Origin: Candidatus Falkowbacteria bacterium
GTDB lineage: Bacteria > Patescibacteriota > Patescibacteriia > Patescibacteriales > VMTK01
Assembly: GCA_013791585.1 (NCBI GenBank)
Contig: VMTK01000005.1
Span: 18,484 to 82,483, forward strand
Direction: 5' to 3'
Length of the DNA: 64,000 nt
The notes under the pieces are model-generated. The model had not been told where the DNA came from. It worked only from the letters and a program-made list of their open reading frames with translations, and ran no database searches. Made by a program: the position numbers and the translations under genes. This document shows positions 10,581-58,835 of the stretch, piece after piece; the stretch's first letter is position 1, and every line of letters begins with the position of its first letter.

Positions 10581-10614
10581 ATTGTTATAAAAAAAATAAA
10601 ATTTTTGCCTATAA

Positions 10615-10712
10615 TTTCTTATTTTTATTATTTTATTATTTTATTATTTTTATTATTTTATTATTTTTATTATTTTATTATTTTTATTATTTTATTATTT
10701 TATTTCACAATC
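10615..10712. repeat. (ATTATTTT)n microsatellite, about 12 units
   Basis: Direct tandem repeat ttattttattatttt... in the gap between the pgk stop and the upstream gene. Confidence 0.9.
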
Positions 10713-11992
10713 CCTTTCAGCCCGGGCATTTTTTCTCCGCTTAAAAAGGCCAGCATGGCTCCTCCGCCGGTTGATACCCAGTCAACATAATCAATCATTT
10801 TTGTCTGCCTTAAAGCTTCCACTGTTTCCCCTCCTCCAACTATTCCAAACGCGCGGCCCCGCGAACGGGACGCCACTGCGCGGGCGATTGACAAAGTGCC
10901 ATGCTTGAAATTGTCTTGTTCAAACATTCCCATCGGCCCGTTCCAAACTATAGTATTGGCTTTTTTTATAAAACCGGAATACAATCCTATGGTTTTGGGG
11001 CCGATATCTAAAATCTTCTCGCTCTTTTTTACATCGTACGCGTTTTTAACTTCCGGCTCTTTATTTCCTTTGCCTTTGCCGACCACAACATCTATCGGCA
11101 AAATAATATTTGCGCCGCCGCCGCGATTTTTATTTTTCAATGCTTTCGCGAGCGTAACATTTTTTTCATCCGCTGCCGACTTGCCGATTTCCATGCCGTG
11201 AGCCGCGAAAAAATTATTAGCCAAGGCCCCGCCGATTAAAATATGGCTCGCTTTCCTGCGCAGTTTTTTTATTAATTTTATTTTAGTGTTAATTTTAGCT
11301 CCGCCGATTACCACAATCAGCGGCTTTTTAGGAAACAGGACTTTGCTTAAATTTTCCAGCTCTTCTTGCAGAAGCAGGCCGGCATACGAAGGTAAATATC
11401 TTTTTATCGCGCTTAATGAAGCATGCTTCCTATGGCTTGCGGCAAAAGCGTTATTAACATAAACCCCGCGCCTTTTAGGCAGAATATTTTTAATATTGTT
11501 AGACAGCTGTCCAAAAGGCGCGGGGTGAATATCAGCCAAACGAGATAATCGCTTGGCGAATTTTTTATCATTTTGCTCTTCCTCTTTATGAAATCTAAGA
11601 TTTTCAAGAAGCATTATTTCCCCTTCTTTTAATTTACCTGCTTCTTCCTCTGTCTTTTTCCCTATGCAATCAGGAACAAATTTTATTCTCTTGCCCAAAA
11701 TCTTGCCCAGCCGAACAGCAATCGGCTTAACAGAATGTGTTTTTGTGTTTTTGTGTTTTTGTGTTTTTGTGTTTGCGCGCGGCCGCCCCAAATGCGTTGC
11801 GATAATTATCTTGCATTTATGCCTCAAAAGAAAACGGATAGTCGGCAAGCAAGAAATTATCTTATAATCATCCAATATATCCGACATCCGACATCCGACA
11901 TCCGACATCCGAAATGGAACATTAAAATCAGCCCGTAAAAAAACTCTTTTGCCTTTTATGTTTTTGGCGTTTCTAATTGATTTAATCTTCAT
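10700..11992 (-). CDS. pgk: Phosphoglycerate kinase
   Basis: KGKRVFLRADFNVP, LENLRFHKEEE and C-terminal GGGAMLAFLSGEKMPGLK are pgk motifs. It carries in-frame repeat insertions RMSDVGCRMSDI (CGGATGT heptamers, 11876-11925) and TKTQKHKNTKT (8-mers, 11736-11775). Confidence 0.9.
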   Translation of the reverse strand: MKIKSIRNAKNIKGKRVFLRADFNVPFRMSDVGCRMSDILDDYKIISCLPTIRFLLRHKCKIIIATHLGRPRANTKTQKHKNTKTHSVKPIAVRLGKILGKRIKFVPDCIGKKTEEEAGKLKEGEIMLLENLRFHKEEEQNDKKFAKRLSRLADIHPAPFGQLSNNIKNILPKRRGVYVNNAFAASHRKHASLSAIKRYLPSYAGLLLQEELENLSKVLFPKKPLIVVIGGAKINTKIKLIKKLRRKASHILIGGALANNFFAAHGMEIGKSAADEKNVTLAKALKNKNRGGGANIILPIDVVVGKGKGNKEPEVKNAYDVKKSEKILDIGPKTIGLYSGFIKKANTIVWNGPMGMFEQDNFKHGTLSIARAVASRSRGRAFGIVGGGETVEALRQTKMIDYVDWVSTGGGAMLAFLSGEKMPGLKGIVK

Positions 11993-20664: not shown

Positions 20665-21294
20665 TTATCTTGAATAAAATTCCACTATCATTTGCGTATT
20701 AATCTTCATGTCAAAATCTTTCTTGCTTGGCTGATGCAGAACTTTGCCTGACAAATCTTCCGCGCTGGCATTGAGCCATCCGGGCGCTTCATGCTTTTTA
20801 AATTTTTCTTTTAAATTCTCAAAAGCTTTAATCTTTTTGTTGATTTTTTTTATTTTTATAACATCGCCCGCTTTCACTTGATATGAAGGTATGTTTATTT
20901 TTTTGCCGCCAACGGTAAAGTGCCCATGGCTGACAAGCTGCCTCGCGTGGCTCCTTGATTTGGAAAACCCTAAGCGAAAAACAGTATTATCCAATCGTGT
21001 TTCCAGCATTTTTAATAAATTTTCTCCGGCATCTCCTTTTTGCTTTTTGGCTTTTTCAAAAGTTATTCTAAACTGTTTTTCCAATATATTATAAATCTTT
21101 TTGGCTTTCTGCTTTTCGCGCAGCTGTATGCTATAGTCGCTTTGCCGCGGCCTTCTATTGCCCCCATGAGCTCCCGGAGGATAATTTTTTTTAACCATGG
21201 CGCACTTGGCGGAATCGCATCTGTCGCCTTTCAGCATCAGCTTTTCCCCCTCTCTTCTGCATTGCTTGCATTTTGGATCTAAATTTTTTGCCAT
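20665..21294 (-). CDS. rpsD: 30S ribosomal protein S4
   Basis: MAKNLDPKCKQCRREGEKLMLKGDRC...RLDNTVFRLGFSKSRSHARQLVSHGHF is the S4 signature. Confidence 0.9.
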   Translation of the reverse strand: MAKNLDPKCKQCRREGEKLMLKGDRCDSAKCAMVKKNYPPGAHGGNRRPRQSDYSIQLREKQKAKKIYNILEKQFRITFEKAKKQKGDAGENLLKMLETRLDNTVFRLGFSKSRSHARQLVSHGHFTVGGKKINIPSYQVKAGDVIKIKKINKKIKAFENLKEKFKKHEAPGWLNASAEDLSGKVLHQPSKKDFDMKINTQMIVEFYSR

Positions 21295-21321
21295 ATATTT
21301 TAGTCGCTTAATTACTTCTGC

Positions 21322-21406
21322 CTCGCCGCAGTCTCTCCGCAGAGGACTGCGGCGGTCATGCTCGCTTGTTCGTCGCAGTCCCTTTCAGGAGACTGCGACG
21401 CGGCGG
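21322..21406 (-). ncRNA. Twin-hairpin GC-rich element (copy A) in the rpsK-rpsD spacer; candidate structured RNA or REP-like element
   Basis: Two consecutive palindromes, cgccgcagtctctccgcagaggactgcggcg and cgtcgcagtccctttcaggagactgcgacg. A second copy at 51164-51270 carries a compensatory change in hairpin 2 (T/A here, C/G there). Confidence 0.45.
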
Positions 21407-21504
21407 AAATTCTAATTTTCAAATTACCAAAATCGTTTTGAAAATTTGAATATTAAGATTTGGGATTTGTTTAGAATTTAGAGTTTAGGATTTAGGATTT
21501 TTTA

Positions 21505-22278
21505 CTAAACTTTCCTCGGCTTCCTTTTTCTGCAGCCGTTATGAGGAATCGGCGTAATGTCTTTTATCAAAGTCACATTCAACCCATTGGCATTTAACGC
21601 TCTGATGGCGGACTCTCTTCCCGTGCCAACGCCTTTCGCGTAAACGCTAACCTCTGACAGCCCGACCCCTTTCGCTTTTTCAACCGCTATTCTGGTAATA
21701 ATTTGAGCGGCGTAAGGCGTTGATTTCCTCGGCCCTTTGAATCCGGCCATGCCGGCGCTTGCCCATGATATTACATTTCCGTCCAAATCAGTCAAAGTAA
21801 CTATTGTATTGTTATAAGTTGATTTAATAAACGCCTTGCCGACACTGACATTTTTCTTTTCTTTTCTTTTCTTTTTTTTGATCATTTTACTTTTCTTTTT
21901 GCCGATAGCGCTCTTTTTGGATTTTTCAGCTTTTCTTTTTTCCAATTTTTTCCTTACTTCCTCGGGCAATTCTTCCATTATCTCGGATGTCTGATTTCGG
22001 ATGTCTGATTTCGGACTTCTGACTTCGGATTCCAAATCTTTTCCAATACTAATATCGCCTAATTCGTTTTCCGGTTTCTTGTCATTTTTCTCCGTATTAT
22101 TTTTTATATTTTCTTTTTTATTTTCTTTCTTGTCCTCCGTAGTTTTCTTGACTTCCGTAGTTTTAACAGAGGGAGTAACAAAGGAGGATTTTTCAATTGC
22201 AACACTACCGGATTTTTTTTCCGGTTTTTTATCTTCTTTCTCTTCTTTATTTTTTATATTCTTATTATCTTCTGACAT
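21505..22278 (-). CDS. rpsK: 30S ribosomal protein S11 with a roughly 130-aa Lys/Glu-rich N-terminal extension (or the true start is an internal Met)
   Basis: The C-terminal 125 aa are S11 (...[45 protein letters not shown]...). The open frame continues upstream through low-complexity sequence that includes a 15-nt tandem repeat at 21961-22030. Confidence 0.8.
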
Positions 22279-32569: not shown

Positions 32570-32810
32570 TGTCGCAATTACTGAACGAAGCTCGAACCTT
32601 TTTTGAACAAAACTCCGACTGATTGCTCCCGCCGTTGGCGGGACGGCAGAAACTAAACGCTCGGGCGGGCAAAAAGCGAAGTCCCATACCGAACTTGTTC
32701 TGGTGCGGGGGAAGGGGGTTGGGGGGAAGGAATTTTTGCCCGCCCTTGCTTTCCGATTCCAATTTTTCCGCCGCCGCCGCATTTCGTGCCAGTGAAACTG
32801 GCGCGCCGCC
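32570..32810 (+). ncRNA. GC-rich structured repeat element, copy 1 (inverted relative to copies 2 and 3)
   Basis: It is the reverse complement of 35643-35880 and of 46543-46826. Conserved core gggcgggcaaaaa...tttttgcccgccc plus hairpins with compensatory substitutions. The embedded ORFs are taken to be spurious. Confidence 0.5.
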
Positions 32811-35642: not shown

Positions 35643-36070
35643 GGCGGCGCATTTCGCAAAGCGAAATACGAAATTCGGCGGCGGCGGAAAAATCGGAATC
35701 GGAAAGCAAGGGCGGGCAAAAATTCCTTCCCCCCAACCCCCTTCCCCCGCACCAGAACAAGTTCGGTATGGGACTTCGCTTTTTGCCCGCCCGAGCGTTC
35801 AGTTTCTGCCGTCCCGCCAACGGCGGGAGCAATCAGTCGGAGTTTTGTTCAAAAAAGGTTCAAAATTAAAAAAGCAATTCCGCCCCTAAATTCAAAGGCA
35901 AAGGCGGGCAAAAAAGGAAGGGGTTTTTTTTTGGGGGGGGAGGGAAATTTTTGCCCGCCGTGCCTTCCTCCCGCCGGAGCATGTCCCGCACACCGATGCG
36001 GGAACGGGCTAATCCGCCTCTTTTTTAAGCCAAGATTATTTTTCGTGCCAATATCATTGGCGCGCCGCCT
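35643..36070 (-). ncRNA. GC-rich structured repeat element, copy 2 (composite; contains a second degenerate core)
   Basis: It shares the core with copies 1 and 3 and sits about 100-500 nt upstream of the XRE gene. Confidence 0.5.
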
Positions 36071-48721: not shown

Positions 48722-48761
48722 AAAAATTCACTTTAATTAATAGTTATAAAGTTATATTGTT

Positions 48762-48805
48762 ATGCGTTATGCGTTATGCGTTATGAGTTATGCGTTACGC
48801 GAAAA
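48762..48805. repeat. TTATGCG heptamer array
   Basis: gttatgcgttatgcgttatgcgttatgagttatgcgttacgcg lies between the ppiB-like gene and cca. Confidence 0.9.
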
Positions 48806-50380
48806 TCACTTCACCCAAAATTCTTTCTTCAGTTCGCTGTCATCTTCCATTTTTCTGTCTTCAATTTTTTCTTTGGCTTGGCCGCGCAATTCTTTTAATT
48901 CCATTTTATTCAATTCTTGGCTTCTGTTTTCTAAATATTCTTTATTATTCAGATCAGGATCATCAACCACTTCGGACAGCAAAACATCCAAAATAGCGCC
49001 GATTTTAGGACTTGGCTGGATTTTTAATAATTTCATTAATTCGTCTCCGTTTATTTTCAGCATTTTTACGGACAGCGGATCCTGGCGCACTTTTTCCATC
49101 ATATATTCCAGATGGCGGAGCTTATACGGCTTGGCTTTCGGCACGCCGGAACCGAGCCGGTCCGCTATCCGCAGATCAATCAAGTCTTTCAAGTTTTCTT
49201 CTCCTACTTTTTTAATCAAGCGCCGCACCGAGCTGGCTGTCACTTCATCAACATTATAATAAAACATGTGGTTGCGTATCAAGGCCGCGACTTTTTCAAT
49301 CTCATCATTGGAAAACTTCATCCGGCTCATAATCTTCTTGGCGATTTTCGCGCCTACTATGTCATGATTATAAAAAGTGGCGCCGCCGTTGATAATTTTT
49401 TTTGTCTGCGGCTTGGCAATATCATGAAGCAGCGCGGCAAGCTTGACGCGCCAATCATTGCTTGGACAGAATTTCAATGACAATACGCAATGCCTGAAAA
49501 CAGAATGAATATGATGCTTGCATTGCCCCACCCCCACTCCTCTTTCCAGCTCCGGCATAATATACTGAAGCAATTTATTTTGATGCAAAAACATTATGCC
49601 TTCGTAAGCTTTATTAGACTTTAATATTTTAATCAACTCATCTTTTATTCTTTCATTGGCAATGAATTTTATGCCGCCGGCCATTTTCTTTATCGCCCGC
49701 TCGGTTTTCGGCTCAATGTCAAAATTCAACTCGCAAGCCAGGCGAATCGCCCGCATCATGCGCAAAGCGTCTTCCTTAAACCTGTCGGACGGCTCCCCTA
49801 CCGCCCTGATAATCCTTTTTTTAATATCTTTCTGCCCGCCGAATAAATCAATAATTTGAAAATTATCATTTTTAACTCCCTTCTCCCGTGAAGCGATAGC
49901 GGGAGAGGGGCTGGGGGTGAGGGCAACAGCCATTGCGTTTATCGTAAAATCGCGCCTGGACAAATCCTTCTCCAAACTATCCTCAAATCTAACCTCATCC
50001 GGGTGCCTCCTGTCAGAATATCCCTGTTCACTGCGATAAGTCGTCACCTCAACAACTGTCTTGTTTTCGTCCTCCTTCGCTAATGCTTCGGCGGATAAAT
50101 GTTTTCGTGTTTTCGTGTTTTCGCGTTTTCGCGTTTTCGTGTTTTCGCGTTCTACGGGAATTATCACAGTCCCAAAAACATTCTCATACTTTCCATCAGG
50201 AAAAATCTTTAAAATTTCTTCCGGCTTGGCATTAGTGGTAATGTCCCAATCTTTAGGTATAATGGAGCGCAATAAATCACGCACGCATCCGCCAACCGCA
50301 TACGCTTCATGGCCTGCTTGCTCCAGTTTGTCTATTATATTTTTTATATATTCTGGTATTTTCATATTAAAACTATACAA
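48806..50380 (-). CDS. cca: CCA-adding enzyme / tRNA nucleotidyltransferase with HD domain
   Basis: N-terminal AGHEAYAVGGCVRDLLRSIIPKDWDITT (polymerase-beta NTase) and an HD domain (LHDIAKP...). In-frame 8-nt repeat (50099-50157, ENTKTRKRENTKTRKH) and palindromic element (49874-49925). Confidence 0.85.
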   Translation of the reverse strand: MYSFNMKIPEYIKNIIDKLEQAGHEAYAVGGCVRDLLRSIIPKDWDITTNAKPEEILKIFPDGKYENVFGTVIIPVERENTKTRKRENTKTRKHLSAEALAKEDENKTVVEVTTYRSEQGYSDRRHPDEVRFEDSLEKDLSRRDFTINAMAVALTPSPSPAIASREKGVKNDNFQIIDLFGGQKDIKKRIIRAVGEPSDRFKEDALRMMRAIRLACELNFDIEPKTERAIKKMAGGIKFIANERIKDELIKILKSNKAYEGIMFLHQNKLLQYIMPELERGVGVGQCKHHIHSVFRHCVLSLKFCPSNDWRVKLAALLHDIAKPQTKKIINGGATFYNHDIVGAKIAKKIMSRMKFSNDEIEKVAALIRNHMFYYNVDEVTASSVRRLIKKVGEENLKDLIDLRIADRLGSGVPKAKPYKLRHLEYMMEKVRQDPLSVKMLKINGDELMKLLKIQPSPKIGAILDVLLSEVVDDPDLNNKEYLENRSQELNKMELKELRGQAKEKIEDRKMEDDSELKKEFWVK

Positions 50381-50550: not shown

Positions 50551-51111
50551 TCACATTCTCTTCAACCACTTCAACGTTACCCATGCAATAACACCTCCGG
50601 CAACTGCCGTGGCAAACTGCGGCCAGCTCATCATCTGCGCGACTTTAATTGCTAATTCTTGTTTGAGCAATAATTTGGAAATAAAATTAACGCTAAAAAA
50701 TAAAAAGCTGAATTTCAAGCCGGCGCCAATAATAACCCCAAGCCAATAATTTTTAACGTTATTGGGAGTTATTTGGCGTAAATTAGCGAAATAATCAACA
50801 CATAAAACAAGCATCACATTGCCAATCATTATAAAAGGAACAACCGGAGCCAGAATTACCGGCAGAAGCCCGCCGGCCAAAGCCATCATACTAGGCACCA
50901 TGCAAAGCACCAAGGCGCTGCGCGCGCCCACAAGAAATAAAGTTAAAATTAAAATCGCGTTAACGATTGGCCCTGTTATGAATTGGACATGGACGACAAA
51001 AGGCAAAAAAATTGCCGCGCCGGCCAATCCTAAAAATTGAGCCGCGGCGCGAACATCAACCCGCGCCATTATTTGTTCTTTTGTGTATAACATATTTTTC
51101 TCGTAACTCAT
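50551..51111 (-). CDS. Polytopic membrane protein (ECF-transporter S-component-like)
   Basis: 186 aa with 5-6 TM helices. Only weak similarity to S-component/QueT-type proteins. Confidence 0.35.
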   Translation of the reverse strand: MSYEKNMLYTKEQIMARVDVRAAAQFLGLAGAAIFLPFVVHVQFITGPIVNAILILTLFLVGARSALVLCMVPSMMALAGGLLPVILAPVVPFIMIGNVMLVLCVDYFANLRQITPNNVKNYWLGVIIGAGLKFSFLFFSVNFISKLLLKQELAIKVAQMMSWPQFATAVAGGVIAWVTLKWLKRM

Positions 51112-51163
51112 AACGCGTAACGCGTAACGATTTATTATATAAAATTATTAAACAGATACTTAT

Positions 51164-51270
51164 TTCCGCTTCGCCGCAGTCTTCCCGCAGTATTGCGGGA
51201 GACTGCGGCGGTTCGCCTGCTTGTCCGCCGCAGTCCCTTTCAGGAGACTGCGGCGCAGCGGGAAAGCGGA
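51164..51270 (-). ncRNA. Twin-hairpin GC-rich element (copy B)
   Basis: cgccgcagtcttcccgcagtattgcgggagactgcggcg ... ccgccgcagtccctttcaggagactgcggcg. Outer pairing ttccgctt / aagcggaa. Compare copy A at 21322-21406. Confidence 0.45.
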
Positions 51271-51274
51271 AAAA

Positions 51275-51553: not shown

Positions 51554-51745
51554 TGCTTACAAATTTAAATACTAAATTGTTGAATATTATTTTTTCTTAT
51601 TAAAATATTCCTGCAAATATGGTTATATGGCTATATGGTTGTAAAATTTTATAACAATATAACCATATGACCATATAGCAATATACTAATATAATAGCAT
51701 AAAATTACTTATTAAACTAACTAAATAAGAGTTGCGCGTTATGCG

Positions 51746-53119
51746 TTATGCGTTACGCGCCGCAATCCACTCTTCGCCCTGTCTAACTAATAATTCTTTC
51801 GCCCTAAGCGGCTCGGACATAATTTCTTTAACAATTTTCTCCATGCGCATGCCTTGAGAACCTTTAATTAAAATCAAATCGCCTTCATTGATTCTATCCT
51901 GAATAAATTTCCCGGCATCCCCGGCGGCCGCAAAATGAAATATGTTATCAGGAAGCATTCCTGCTTTTTCCGCTCCTCCGGCAATATCGCGCGATCTTTC
52001 TCCGACAACTATTAATTTGTCAATCCCGGATTCAAAAACCAGGCGGCCGGCTTTTCTGTGCTCTTCTTCGCTAACGCTGCCCAGCTCAAGCATGTCGCCT
52101 AAAACCGCGAACTTTCTGGCTCCGCTTGCCAAAGGTATTTTGTTTAACATATCCAGCGCCGACGCCAAAGACTGCGGAGACGAATTGTAAGTGTCATCAA
52201 TAATTAAAGTATTTTTTATGCCCGGTATCAAATTCATTCTTCCTGTTGGAGATTTGAATTCTGACAGCGCTTCTGCTATTTCCGTTAAATTTAAGCCATA
52301 AGCTATGCCGACAGCCGCGGCGGACAAGGCGGCATAAACTGCGGCGCGGCCTATCACATTAGGCAATAAAATATTGGCTGATGAATTATTATGGCTGATT
52401 TTAAAGCTAATGCCGGCTAATTTTCCTGCCATGCTTTCCTTCGGTTCATTAAGATTGGAAAAATTAAAGACTAATTCCCGCGCTCTTACGCCGGCGCCGC
52501 TGTTAAAGCCATAGGTTAAAATTTTAGCTTTGCTTAATCTGGCAATTCGCATCACTTTTTTATCATCATAATTCAAAACCGCCCAGCCGGATTTCGGCAA
52601 AGCTTCAATCAGCTTGCCTTTTTCTTTTTGTATATTCTCTATCGTACCGAAAAACTCCAAATGGACAGGCCCTATTGCCGTAAGCACCCCTGTTTTACTT
52701 TTGGCTATTTTATTTAAATAATCCATGTCCCCGGGACGGTCTACGCCCATTTCCAAAATTAGAATTTTAGGATAATTTTTATCTTGAATTAAAATTAATT
52801 TTAGCGCTTTCCAGAAAACAAAAAACCAGCCAAGAATGGATTTGCCCGGAGATTCGGAACCGATAACGGTTAATGGCGCGCCGATTTCGTTGTTATAGTT
52901 TTTTATATTTTTTCGCGCGCTGAATTTTGAAGCAAGCACGGTATAAATAGCTTCTTTGGAACTTGTTTTGCCAACGCTTCCCGTGATGCCGATAATATCC
53001 GGCTTATACTTGGCTAAAATAATCTTGGCTAAAATTTTTAGTTTTAACTGGATTAATTTTTTCATATTTAAAATAAAAAAATAAAAAAAGTAATAAAATA
53101 ATAAAAACATAGATGTCAT
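51746..53119 (-). CDS. murF: UDP-N-acetylmuramoyl-tripeptide--D-alanyl-D-alanine ligase
   Basis: GITGSVGKTSSKE, NYNNEIGAPLTV and LEMGVDRPGD are Mur ligase motifs. It lies in the dcw cluster. The true start is probably MKKLIQL, downstream of the longest-ORF start. Confidence 0.85.
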   Translation of the reverse strand: MTSMFLLFYYFFYFFILNMKKLIQLKLKILAKIILAKYKPDIIGITGSVGKTSSKEAIYTVLASKFSARKNIKNYNNEIGAPLTVIGSESPGKSILGWFFVFWKALKLILIQDKNYPKILILEMGVDRPGDMDYLNKIAKSKTGVLTAIGPVHLEFFGTIENIQKEKGKLIEALPKSGWAVLNYDDKKVMRIARLSKAKILTYGFNSGAGVRARELVFNFSNLNEPKESMAGKLAGISFKISHNNSSANILLPNVIGRAAVYAALSAAAVGIAYGLNLTEIAEALSEFKSPTGRMNLIPGIKNTLIIDDTYNSSPQSLASALDMLNKIPLASGARKFAVLGDMLELGSVSEEEHRKAGRLVFESGIDKLIVVGERSRDIAGGAEKAGMLPDNIFHFAAAGDAGKFIQDRINEGDLILIKGSQGMRMEKIVKEIMSEPLRAKELLVRQGEEWIAARNA

Positions 53120-55470: not shown

Positions 55471-55497
55471 AAGATTTATTATTTTATTATTTTATTA

Positions 55498-55660
55498 TTT
55501 TCGCGTTTTCGTGTTTTCGTGTTTTCGTGTTTTTGTGTTTTCGTGTTTTGAGGCGAAGCCGAGTGTTTTCGTGTTTTGAGGCGAAGCCGAGTGTTTTTGT
55601 GTTTTGAGGCGAAGCCGAGTGTTTTCGTGTTTTGAGGCGAAGCCGAGTGTTTTTGTGTTT
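55498..55660. repeat. Tandem repeat block: about five 8-nt units followed by four 28-bp units (gaggcgaagccgagtgttttYgtgtttt)
   Basis: Direct repeats with no spacers lie between ftsL and rsmH. Confidence 0.9.
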
Positions 55661-56624
55661 AAATCTTCTCCGCGGCCCTTAGCTTGGCGCTGCGGGATCT
55701 TGGATTTTTTGCGGCCTCCTCCTTGCCGGCCGCAACAATCCCGCGGGTTAATATTTTAAGCTGCTGTTTGTGTTCGCATTGGCAGACAGGATAACCGGGA
55801 GGGCAAAGGCAGCCGCGCGATTCTTGTCTGAAAAAATTCTTTGCAATCCTGTCTTCCAAGCTATGATAAGACACAACCACTATCTTTCCGCCTTGAGCCA
55901 ATAAATCAACGGCTTGGGGCAATGTTTTTTTTAAATTTTCAAGTTCATTGTTGGAAGCAATGCGCAATGCCTGAAAAGTTTTAGTGGCGCAATTAATCTT
56001 TTTTCTTTTATAAAAATCCGGAACCGCCTGATTTATGATTTCAACCAGCCGCCCTGTTGTTTTTATTGATTTTAATTCGCGGCATTCAACGATCTTCCGC
56101 GCGATTCTTTTAGCAAATCTCTCCTCCCCATATTCCCTAATAATCTTTTCCAATTTCTCCTGCTTCCAATTATTAACAATATCCTCTGTTGTCCGACATC
56201 CGAAGTCCGACATCTGACATCCGAAACTCATATTTAGCGGGGTATCCAGCTGAAAAGAAAATCCCCTGCTCCTGTCCGCGAGTTGAGCTGATGATAGCCC
56301 CAAATCAAAAACAATGCCATCAACCTTTTTTTTATGAAAATATTTTTTTGTAATTTTGGTGGTGTTTTTAAAATTTTCATTTGCTAAAATTATATTTTGA
56401 AATTTGAAATTTGAAATTTGAAATTTGGCGTTTTCTATCGCCATTTTATCCAAATCAATGGCAATAATTTTCCCTTTTGGCCCGATTCTTTCAGCGATTG
56501 CGACAGTGTAGCCGGCTCCGCCCAAAGTGCAGTCAATAAAATATTGTCCTGGCTGCGGATCAAGATAATTTAGCGCCTCATTCAGCATCACTGGAATATG
56601 TTTGTAATTCATTGATTTATCCAA
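55659..56624 (-). CDS. rsmH: 16S rRNA (cytosine1402-N4)-methyltransferase RsmH (MraW)
   Basis: HIPVMLNEALNYLDPQPGQYFIDCTLGGAGYT... identifies RsmH. In-frame heptamer insertions (NFKFQISNFKFQ at 56378-56425; MSDFGCRTT at 56190-56225). Confidence 0.9.
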   Translation of the reverse strand: MDKSMNYKHIPVMLNEALNYLDPQPGQYFIDCTLGGAGYTVAIAERIGPKGKIIAIDLDKMAIENAKFQISNFKFQNIILANENFKNTTKITKKYFHKKKVDGIVFDLGLSSAQLADRSRGFSFQLDTPLNMSFGCQMSDFGCRTTEDIVNNWKQEKLEKIIREYGEERFAKRIARKIVECRELKSIKTTGRLVEIINQAVPDFYKRKKINCATKTFQALRIASNNELENLKKTLPQAVDLLAQGGKIVVVSYHSLEDRIAKNFFRQESRGCLCPPGYPVCQCEHKQQLKILTRGIVAAGKEEAAKNPRSRSAKLRAAEKI

Positions 56625-56629
56625 AACTC

Positions 56630-56750
56630 GTTACGAGTTATGCGTTATGCGTTATGCGTTATGCGTTATGCGTTATGCGTTATGCGTTATGCGTTATGCG
56701 TTATGCGTTATGCGTTATGCGTTATGCGTTATGCGTTACGAGTTATGCAC
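56630..56750. repeat. Long TTATGCG heptamer array (about 15 units)
   Basis: gttatgcgttatgcg... lies immediately upstream of rsmH. Confidence 0.95.
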
Positions 56751-56916
56751 TATAAAACTAATGCTCTTGCTCGGTTATAAATAATACTGCGCAGCTGTAT
56801 GCTGTCAACAAAAGGAGCTTTAATCACTTTTACTTTAACACTGTGATTTTTATTTTCGCGCGTTGTTTCGCATTTAATTTTTCTTGTCATAGTTTTATTT
56901 TTTATTTGAATAATGT

Positions 56917-58493: not shown

Positions 58494-58835
58494 CTACAAT
58501 GTTAAATCTTTTCTTTTTAACGGCAACCTTCCGACATCCGACATCCGACATCCGATCACCGGTACTCCCAGCGCATAACCAAGCGCGTTAGCCGTAACCA
58601 CGCCTATCCTTAACGCGGTAAAACTTGTTTTATCAGTTCCTTTGTTAACGACTTGAATTTTTTCTATATTGCTTAATTCAAGATTATTCTTATCTAATAT
58701 CTTTTTAATTTCCGGCAATAATTTCTCAGCTTGCCTGTATTTGGCGCTGAATTTCTTTTTTGCCAATATATTTTCGCCTTTTTTTACAACGATTTCAATA
58801 TTATGGCCTTGAGTTGTGTCTATATATAATGTCAT
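58494..58835 (-). CDS. tsaB: TsaB (YeaZ)-like N-terminal domain protein, apparently truncated by a heptamer array
   Basis: MTLYIDTTQGHNIEIVV...TSFTALRIGVVTANALGYALGVPVIG matches the TsaB N-terminus. The ORF ends within the CGGATGT-type repeat (RMSDVGRLP...), with no C-terminal half downstream. Confidence 0.5.
   Translation of the reverse strand: MTLYIDTTQGHNIEIVVKKGENILAKKKFSAKYRQAEKLLPEIKKILDKNNLELSNIEKIQVVNKGTDKTSFTALRIGVVTANALGYALGVPVIGCRMSDVGRLPLKRKDLTL

Follow-up and report, generated by a model that had tools for sequence, protein, structure and literature searches.

We examined a twin-hairpin DNA element that occurs twice in a 64,000-nt stretch of the Candidatus Falkowbacteria contig VMTK01000005.1 (the whole stretch is called the window here): once, as copy A, in the spacer between the ribosomal protein genes rpsK (S11) and rpsD (S4), and once, as copy B, elsewhere in the window. 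The element is most probably a non-autonomous mobile doublet of repetitive extragenic palindromes (REP), similar to a BIME or REPIN, whose partner is a REP-associated tyrosine transposase (RAYT) by which it would be spread in trans. An initial annotation of the window had offered two readings, a REP/BIME-like element or a leader or attenuator for S4. The former was borne out, because the element belongs to a dispersed family, is an inverted palindromic doublet, and has RAYT genes bracketed by the same hairpins.

Two diverged copies of one element

Copies A and B are diverged versions of one element of ~93-110 nt, each with two hairpins of ~30 nt, a spacer of 15-16 nt and 8-nt terminal inverted repeats (Table 1). 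One 10-nt arm, CGYCGCAGTC / GACTGCGRCG, is common to all four hairpins. The two consecutive GC-rich palindromes described by the initial annotation were found as placed in both copies, with spans widened by the 8-nt ends; as these ends are complementary on each copy, the true spans are 21316-21408 and 51163-51272. In both copies hairpin 2 is hairpin 1 inverted, with a 3' bulged A in place of the 5' bulged T, and the whole element therefore has dyad symmetry. The compensatory pair reported earlier for hairpin 2, T...A in copy A against C...G in copy B, proved exact in the alignment of the copies, and this third arm pair is the sole difference between the two hairpin-2 sequences. The flanking genes are co-directional on the minus strand, and the distance to the next start codon, given before as 10-60 nt, measured 29 nt for copy A (to rpsD) and 60 nt for copy B.

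Compared with shuffled sequence, the folding energy has a z of -5.9 for copy A and -9.8 for copy B. Allowing ≤1 mismatch, the arm motif has 12 matches in the window against 2.0 expected, 8 of which are the arms of copies A and B, and the twin pattern gave 0 matches in 100 shuffles. The covariance model (R1) detected no copy beyond A and B over the 64-kb window, and no promoter or terminator is predicted within the element.

A dispersed family of doublets and single hairpins

Exact scans with the twin pattern covered a genome collection, with one genome per species, and JGI metagenomes. The genome collection yielded 28 loci, of which 18 lie on low-GC contigs with labels that are nearly all Falkowbacteria, Patescibacteria or unclassified 'bacterium'; by metagenome-assembled genome (MAG), nine belong to JAZDMY, three to JAYEHC, two each to JAZDEU and JAZDKT, and one each to CAIUCZ and CAVVFV. 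From the JGI metagenomes came 34 loci, ~20 of them low-GC, and 10 contigs were from sample Ga0180732. High-GC pattern matches (Mycobacterium, haloarchaea, Proteobacteria arrays) were without the paired twin architecture and were rejected as chance or unrelated; L006, L015, L019, L020, L022, L024, L027, L029 and others were set aside in this way. In the high-GC proteobacterial loci L027 (3712-7075) and L046, the 10-mer CGCCGCAGTC recurs every 66-69 nt, which looks like an unrelated tandem array and a chance match.

The resulting catalogue holds 57 elements, namely 39 doublets (33 non-redundant) and 18 single hairpins. Apart from copies A and B, about 45 copies come from Falkowbacteria-like MAGs and metagenomes. 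By genomic context, 23 elements fall between co-directional, 11 between convergent and 3 between divergent genes, 6 at the edge of a contig and 14 within open reading frames (ORFs); these contexts come from a simple ORF caller, and of the 14 intragenic calls only the six with domain support are to be trusted. The family consensus reads TTCCGCCY - [CGYCGCAGTC t ctc loop gag GACTGCGRCG] - spacer 9-25 nt - [CGYCGCAGTC ctc loop gag a GACTGCGRCG] - RGGCGGAA. The hairpins measure 27-39 nt, each with a 10-bp arm, an inner stem of 2-3 bp and one bulged base, and the inverted arrangement (5' bulged T in hairpin 1, 3' bulged A in hairpin 2) is found in 25/27 doublets. Conservation ends 8-9 nt outside the arms, beyond which the flanks are generic and AT-rich. 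The initial annotation had held that many additional copies of random orientation and free of covariation would mean simple REP-like DNA repeats; many copies in all contexts were indeed found, but covariation is present and the window's subfamily has a weak orientation bias.

Genes of 76-144 aa other than RAYT genes were also seen between two element copies, in a composite-like arrangement, at L011:3399-3985, L041:1221-1807, L047:2240-2826 and L060:142-726. L011 is labelled as a Nanoarchaeia archaeon, yet the locus is common to metagenome contigs and may be mis-binned.

RAYT genes bracketed by the same hairpins

On L018 (MAG JAZDMY), a 184-aa ORF (1218-1772) amid a cluster of hairpins matches NCBIfam NF047646, REP-associated tyrosine transposase, with 81.6 bits (cutoff 80) and also passed Pfam Y1_Tnp. 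One family hairpin lies 17 nt upstream of this RAYT gene and a second 3 nt downstream. The homologue P0011 (NF047646, 87.6 bits) is encoded on contigs that share the window's study and its ENA assembly. At L067 its gene has the upstream hairpin ttccgcct CGCCAGAGTC tcctgaaagg GACTCTGGCG and the downstream hairpin CGTCAGAGTC cctttcagga GACTCTGACG aggcgggg. These share the loop (tcctgaaagg / cctttcagga) and the end (ttccgcct) of the window's element, in inverted orientation, and the arm CGCCAGAGTC / GACTCTGGCG differs from the window arm by two compensated base pairs. The L080 RAYT is bracketed by CGTCACAGTC / GACTGTGACG hairpins, while two ATAAGAGTC cctttcagga GACTCTTAT hairpins both stand downstream of the L079 RAYT. 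Inverted bracketing with one hairpin per side was thus observed at L018, L067 and L080. Comparing the hairpin arms of L067, L079 and L080 shows that the stem sequence changes with the transposase lineage, the apical part and the pairing being kept.

The HUH motif (MPNHxH) and the YIHxN tyrosine (LNYIHxN) are invariant in five RAYT members and align to Escherichia coli TnpA-REP (PDB 4ER8), which the RAYT matches weakly overall (E = 0.095) and around the catalytic motifs only. A protein search returned 1451 homologues at E ≤ 1e-5, most of them without a name; the organism labels are Patescibacteria or Falkowbacteria, and many homologues bear the JGI label 'REP element-mobilizing transposase RayT'. 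The window's S4 protein (P0246) and P0011 have pairwise accession series (MBA3046811/3047851, MBU3905767/3905449, MBU4014927/4015320 and MBU4026127/4026016), and both occur in assembly ERZ27247124. As NCBI accessions are issued in blocks per assembly and the series coincide, four MAGs of the window's organism probably encode both P0011 and the exact S4. GC content and intergenic heptamer repeats had not told whether L067 comes from the window's genome. On the Falkowbacteria contig L079 (15117-20240), the RAYT gene is a few kb from PrgI, TraC-like, VirB4-like (DUF87/TraG) and 23S_rRNA_IVP genes, and it may be in or near a conjugative element.

A different kind of mobile DNA would be a miniature inverted-repeat transposable element (MITE) of a DDE-type insertion sequence, with the 8-nt ends as transposase-binding inverted repeats and the RAYT association as a coincidence. 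The terminal inverted repeats are conserved, as such an element would have them, and short flanking direct repeats are in slight excess: they are mostly 0-4 nt long, with a mean of 3.1 nt against 2.4 +/- 0.2 nt in shuffled partners, and reach 6-9 nt at three loci. However, no consistent target-site duplication was found across family copies, no copy was seen with a DDE transposase beside it, the hairpins themselves bracket RAYT genes in three independent cases, and the stem changes follow the RAYT lineage. We consider a MITE very unlikely. At L021 (44-231) and L055 (655-850), unlike most copies, the element stands between direct repeats of ~18 nt (AAGTGAATGGTYTTTTAA).

Hairpin pairing covaries and is strand-symmetric

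Covariation was assessed on an alignment of 27 distinct doublets, with 500 shuffles and slid controls. For a model of two hairpins and an 8-bp outer helix, pairing amounts to 91.6%, compared with ~35-50% in the slid controls. Under this model 15 pairs have changes in both partners; the covariation score is 0.242, while shuffles give 0.133 and 0/500 reach 0.242. The third arm pair is C-G in 15 doublets, U-A in 11 and unpaired in one for hairpin 1, and C-G in 16, U-A in seven, U.G in two and unpaired in two for hairpin 2. Pairs of the inner stem and the outer helix switch type too (for example pair 6-118, G-C 19 vs U-A 6), and in 15/33 non-redundant doublets one hairpin has T-A and the other C-G. 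Covariation of the hairpin pairing is genuine and recurs many times across the family. RNAfold preferred a single long (REPIN) hairpin for copy A, which we rejected as the conserved structure, its variable positions being without covariation.

The initial annotation had taken preserved pairing as a sign of an RNA-level function. This step does not follow: the covariation is real, but it is strand-symmetric and is seen in the hairpins bracketing a RAYT gene as well. R1 scores are near-equal on the two strands (88.5/86.0 bits for A, 82.7/81.0 bits for B), and single-step intermediates on the transcribed strand, in small numbers, comprise six G.U and six C.A. Y1/HUH transposases use single-stranded DNA as substrate and recognise hairpins in it, an established property of IS608 TnpA and of E. 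coli TnpA-REP; compensatory stem changes are expected from this activity alone. Recognition of single-stranded DNA hairpins accounts for the covariation as well as RNA does; since the strands fit alike, G.U equals C.A and the RAYT-bracketing hairpins covary likewise, a constraint at the DNA level is favoured.

These data also bear on a second alternative, in which the element originated as mobile DNA and now has a host RNA role: stable hairpins in polycistronic mRNAs would be barriers to decay, sites of processing or partial terminators and would set how strongly neighbouring genes are expressed relative to one another. RNA functions have been proposed for REPs (PMC3733652), and such roles are described for some E. 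coli REPs. The 23/57 elements in short spacers between co-directional genes would be transcribed, and in the window's spacer subfamily (AAGCAGGC-like) every informative locus, 4-6 of them depending on the spacer matches accepted, is oriented alike with respect to transcription. With so few loci this orientation bias is only suggestive. It is also confounded with replication direction, because GC skew is negative in 32/32 windows of this ~38% G+C stretch and every window gene examined is on the minus strand; an RNA role and lagging-strand-biased transposition both predict it. Moreover, the transcribed strand has no surplus of G.U relative to C.A (6 vs 6), and copies in frame within genes or between divergent genes are unlike an mRNA 3'-end role. 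A present-day host RNA role is, in our judgement, distinctly improbable.

Copy A as a probable lineage-specific insertion upstream of rpsD

The reading of the element as a leader of rpsD, a cis-regulatory or attenuator RNA in which S4 binding would control translation or read-through, agrees with the place of copy A on the transcribed strand 29 nt upstream of the start codon, with its strong predicted fold and with the compensatory changes that maintain pairing. Synteny of the fetched loci with the window was not useful for an empty-site comparison, and S4 homologues were taken instead. The four closest ones found are 86, 78, 77 and 77% identical (loci L073-L076), and all four relatives keep the gene order rpsM/rpsK-rpsD-rpoA-rplQ. 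Their rpsK-rpsD spacers, of 115, 97, 97 and 72 nt, contain AT-rich heptamer-like repeats and are devoid of the element; the alignment has one clean gap of ~93 nt at its position. Among the records with the window's exact S4 (contigs of GCA_018900415.1 and GCA_018899775.1, one ENA assembly and one JGI metagenome), no base of the spacer differs; in source names the organism is a Patescibacteria group bacterium or Candidatus Falkowbacteria. This pattern points to copy A as a lineage-specific insertion and not a conserved S4 leader.

Further observations speak against the leader. Copy B precedes an unrelated ORF without a Pfam match, other copies are intragenic or stand between convergent or divergent genes, so that the family is also present in places such as coding regions and convergent spacers in which a leader could have no effect, and the model fits both strands equally, with six G.U against six C.A. 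At the gathering threshold, Rfam reported two tRNAs only in the whole window and no leader family, and at a permissive E-value the region 21250-21550 yielded nothing beyond chance miRNA or CRISPR-like scores, far short of the cutoffs. No terminator-like tail was found either: as the initial annotation had stated, neither copy is followed by a U tract. T runs are missing behind both copies, whichever strand is read, and the terminator scan was empty in both, so the element does not have the form of an intrinsic terminator. Known S4 leaders (the E. coli alpha operon autoregulatory site, the Bacillus rpsD leader, Rfam families) are alike in position only, as structured elements upstream of rpsD, whereas the window's element has no Rfam match, is not kept at the orthologous site, is multi-copy and is strand-symmetric. 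With the relatives' spacers empty and copies in all genomic contexts, we abandoned the S4 leader or attenuator and give it almost no credence.

In-frame copies within protein genes

Intragenic copies (Table 1) keep the reading frame and add ~25-40 residues, for example ASQSPAGDCDGDEMYADAPQSAKGDCGGE in isoleucyl-tRNA synthetase (IleRS). Matching empty sites were identified for two of them: the IleRS of L008 (75% identical) is without 28 residues, and the ATP synthase alpha subunit (AtpA) of L032 without 39 residues, in each case exactly at the element. All six frames of the arms are free of stop codons, and whole elements are open in 68% of frames vs 45% for shuffles. The intragenic copies resemble the Rickettsia palindromic elements (RPEs), which are palindromic repeats in frame in housekeeping genes of a small-genome bacterium; in contrast, both window copies are intergenic, and there is no sequence similarity. 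RPE-1 is longer, ~100-150 bp, and is not known to have a transposase.

Features and neighbouring genes

The coordinates are collected in Table 1. The rpsK ORF allows a 257-aa reading, in which an N-terminal extension of ~130 aa is rich in lysine and glutamate; annotators differ on its product, with 126 aa given by NCBI and 257 aa by ENA and JGI. An exact protein look-up of the 92-aa gene adjoining copy B returned no record.

Table 1. Coordinates of the two window copies, their parts and neighbours, and of the intragenic copies at other loci
Feature	Position	Strand	Sequence	Remarks
Copy A, whole REP doublet	21316-21408			93 nt, in rpsK-rpsD spacer; R1 88.5 bits (+), 86.0 bits (-)
Copy A, left terminal inverted repeat	21316-21323		ttctgcct	Pairs with 21401-21408; outer helix covaries across the family
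Copy A, hairpin 1	21324-21354		CGCCGCAGTC t ctc cgca gag GACTGCGGCG	5' bulged T type
Copy A, inter-hairpin spacer	21355-21370		gtcatgctcgcttgtt	Aligns with spacers of copy B, L028, L033 and L044
Copy A, hairpin 2	21371-21400		CGTCGCAGTC cct ttc agg a GACTGCGACG	3' bulged A type; T-A variant at arm pair 3
Copy A, right terminal inverted repeat	21401-21408		cggcggaa	Outer-helix pairing and end consensus
rpsD (S4)	20665-21294	-		29 nt from copy A, downstream by transcription; protein identical to P0246
rpsK (S11)	21505-22278	-		Upstream of copy A by transcription
Copy B, whole REP doublet	51163-51272			R1 82.7 bits (+), 81.0 bits (-) over 51163-51264
Copy B, hairpin 1	51172-51210		CGCCGCAGTC ttcccgca gtat tgcggga GACTGCGGCG	Apical stem 8 nt longer than in copy A
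Copy B, spacer	51211-51225		gttcgcctgcttgtc	
Copy B, hairpin 2	51226-51255		CGCCGCAGTC cctttcagga GACTGCGGCG	C-G variant
TM1266-like gene, 92 aa	51275-51553	-		One neighbour of copy B
186-aa ORF without Pfam family match	50551-51111	-		Other neighbour of copy B; start codon 60 nt away
IleRS copy	L007:2539-2619			Between catalytic and anticodon-binding domains
ATP synthase alpha copy	L035:1863-1936			Within N-terminal barrel domain
Peptidyl-tRNA hydrolase (Pth) copy	L052:5225-5295			
Histidine kinase copy	L014:1803-1873			Within HATPase_c
Glycogen-synthase-like gene copy	L061:329-396			
PEP-utilizer protein copy	L026:2290-2451			

Other repeats in the window

Intergenic tandem repeats with a period of 7-8 nt (GTTATGC, TTTCGTGT, CATCCGA, ATTATTTT) were observed at 56629-56760, 48744-48808, 51706-51766, 50094-50167, 55474-55674, 11866-11928, 58516-58564 and 10596-10718, and one 28-nt repeat at 55535-55674. 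Several runs, such as 48744-48808, 51706-51766 and 56629-56760, directly adjoin the end of a listed ORF. Another, unrelated family of ~215-nt repeats occupies 32573-32787, 35668-35882 and 46650-46827; two of its copies stand 2.9 kb from each other in inverted orientation, with 94% complementarity, the third is partial and near a tRNA, and the short ORFs in the copies had no NCBIfam match. At 46824-46905, a perfect inverted repeat of 35 nt, with a loop of 12 nt, directly adjoins the tRNA gene at 46903-46973.

Discussion

We propose that P0011, as the HUH/Y1 tyrosine transposase of this genome, would spread the doublets in trans, its own gene being flanked on each side by one hairpin of the same type, inverted. 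A Y1 transposase of this kind would act on single-stranded DNA and read hairpin shape, so that copies with both hairpins still paired would remain mobile, which would give rise to the compensatory C-G/T-A changes. Copy A would have inserted into the rpsK-rpsD spacer in one lineage and would now be a passive passenger in the alpha-operon transcript, probably with no regulatory role; any effect on S4/S11 expression, for example through a stable RNA hairpin that hinders decay, would be incidental and would not explain why the sequence is there.

Several points weigh against this proposal. Transposition and RAYT activity are predicted from sequence, and the link to a RAYT of the same genome consists of accession proximity and co-occurrence in one assembly, not a closed genome. 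By tblastn, no RAYT was found in the window, and none in the pattern-derived loci except L018. The copies seen for the window's organism number two in 64 kb. Unlike in REPINs and BIMEs, two separate hairpins and an 8-bp outer helix covary, not one long hairpin, and cross-hairpin pairs at the variable arm position are C-G in nine doublets, U.G in nine, U-A in two and unpaired in seven. No GTAG tag was found at the hairpin foot, and CGTC appears only as the paired first four bases of T-variant arms. With copies inside genes, 'extragenic' is not strictly applicable, and the single orientation of the window's spacer subfamily also belongs here.

In other respects the element is like the REPINs of Pseudomonas fluorescens and the BIMEs of E. 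coli with TnpA-REP (PMC3116915, PMC3337134, PMC5581495): it consists of GC-rich palindromes inverted around a spacer, its copies are dispersed and mostly intergenic across related genomes, a RAYT-family HUH/Y1 gene is bracketed by its units, and compensatory changes occur. It differs in its Patescibacteria (Falkowbacteria-like) host, in the sizeable share of copies in frame within genes, and in a RAYT that matches E. coli TnpA-REP weakly and in the catalytic motifs only. The start of the arm, CGTC/CGCC, is shared with CGTC-tagged REPs (Rickettsia RPE-4/RPE-6, Neisseria dRS3; PMC3733652), among which head-to-head dimers predominate and intragenic dimers encode 20-30 residues (Di Nocera et al. 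2013, PMC3733652). Those REPs have an unpaired CGTC beside an 8-9 bp stem starting with A-T pairs, loops of 4-5 nt and a CCA tail, and are reported without a dedicated transposase (PMC3733652), whereas the element here has CGYC paired with GRCG, a 10+3 bp stem, no tail seen, and a RAYT. Membership in the CGTC-REPs was rejected by their published definition, in which the tag is unpaired; here CGYC is paired and covarying.

Full-text literature searches turned up nothing published on RAYTs or REPs from Patescibacteria or the candidate phyla radiation, and a 2017 survey of RAYT groups names Proteobacteria, Clostridia, Cyanobacteria, Chlorobia and Caldilineae. A REP doublet with its RAYT is thus apparently new for the phylum, though of a kind already known. 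It would be a rather unlikely conjunction for the REP-RAYT pair to be widespread and long-lived in Patescibacteria, to consist of two independent hairpins with an outer helix, to have inserted repeatedly in frame in essential genes, adding to the protein insertions that are typical of these reduced genomes, and for the orientation bias to reflect a real host RNA role in operon mRNAs such as rpsK-rpsD.

The chief practical gain is for annotation: such a GC-rich twin hairpin is not to be taken for a riboswitch-like S4 leader, and the same trap awaits at every gene of a Patescibacteria MAG that has a family copy in front of it; GC-rich repeats of this kind could also bring assembly breaks and mis-binning. 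For IleRS and ATP synthase alpha, insertion of the repeat in frame is documented with matching empty sites. With arm changes that track the transposase lineage and covariation within hairpins, the family is a natural data set on how a Y1 transposase would read hairpins. Patescibacteria are thought to have very small genomes, and the element places a REP-RAYT pair in genomes of this kind, where lasting selfish repeats would be unexpected.

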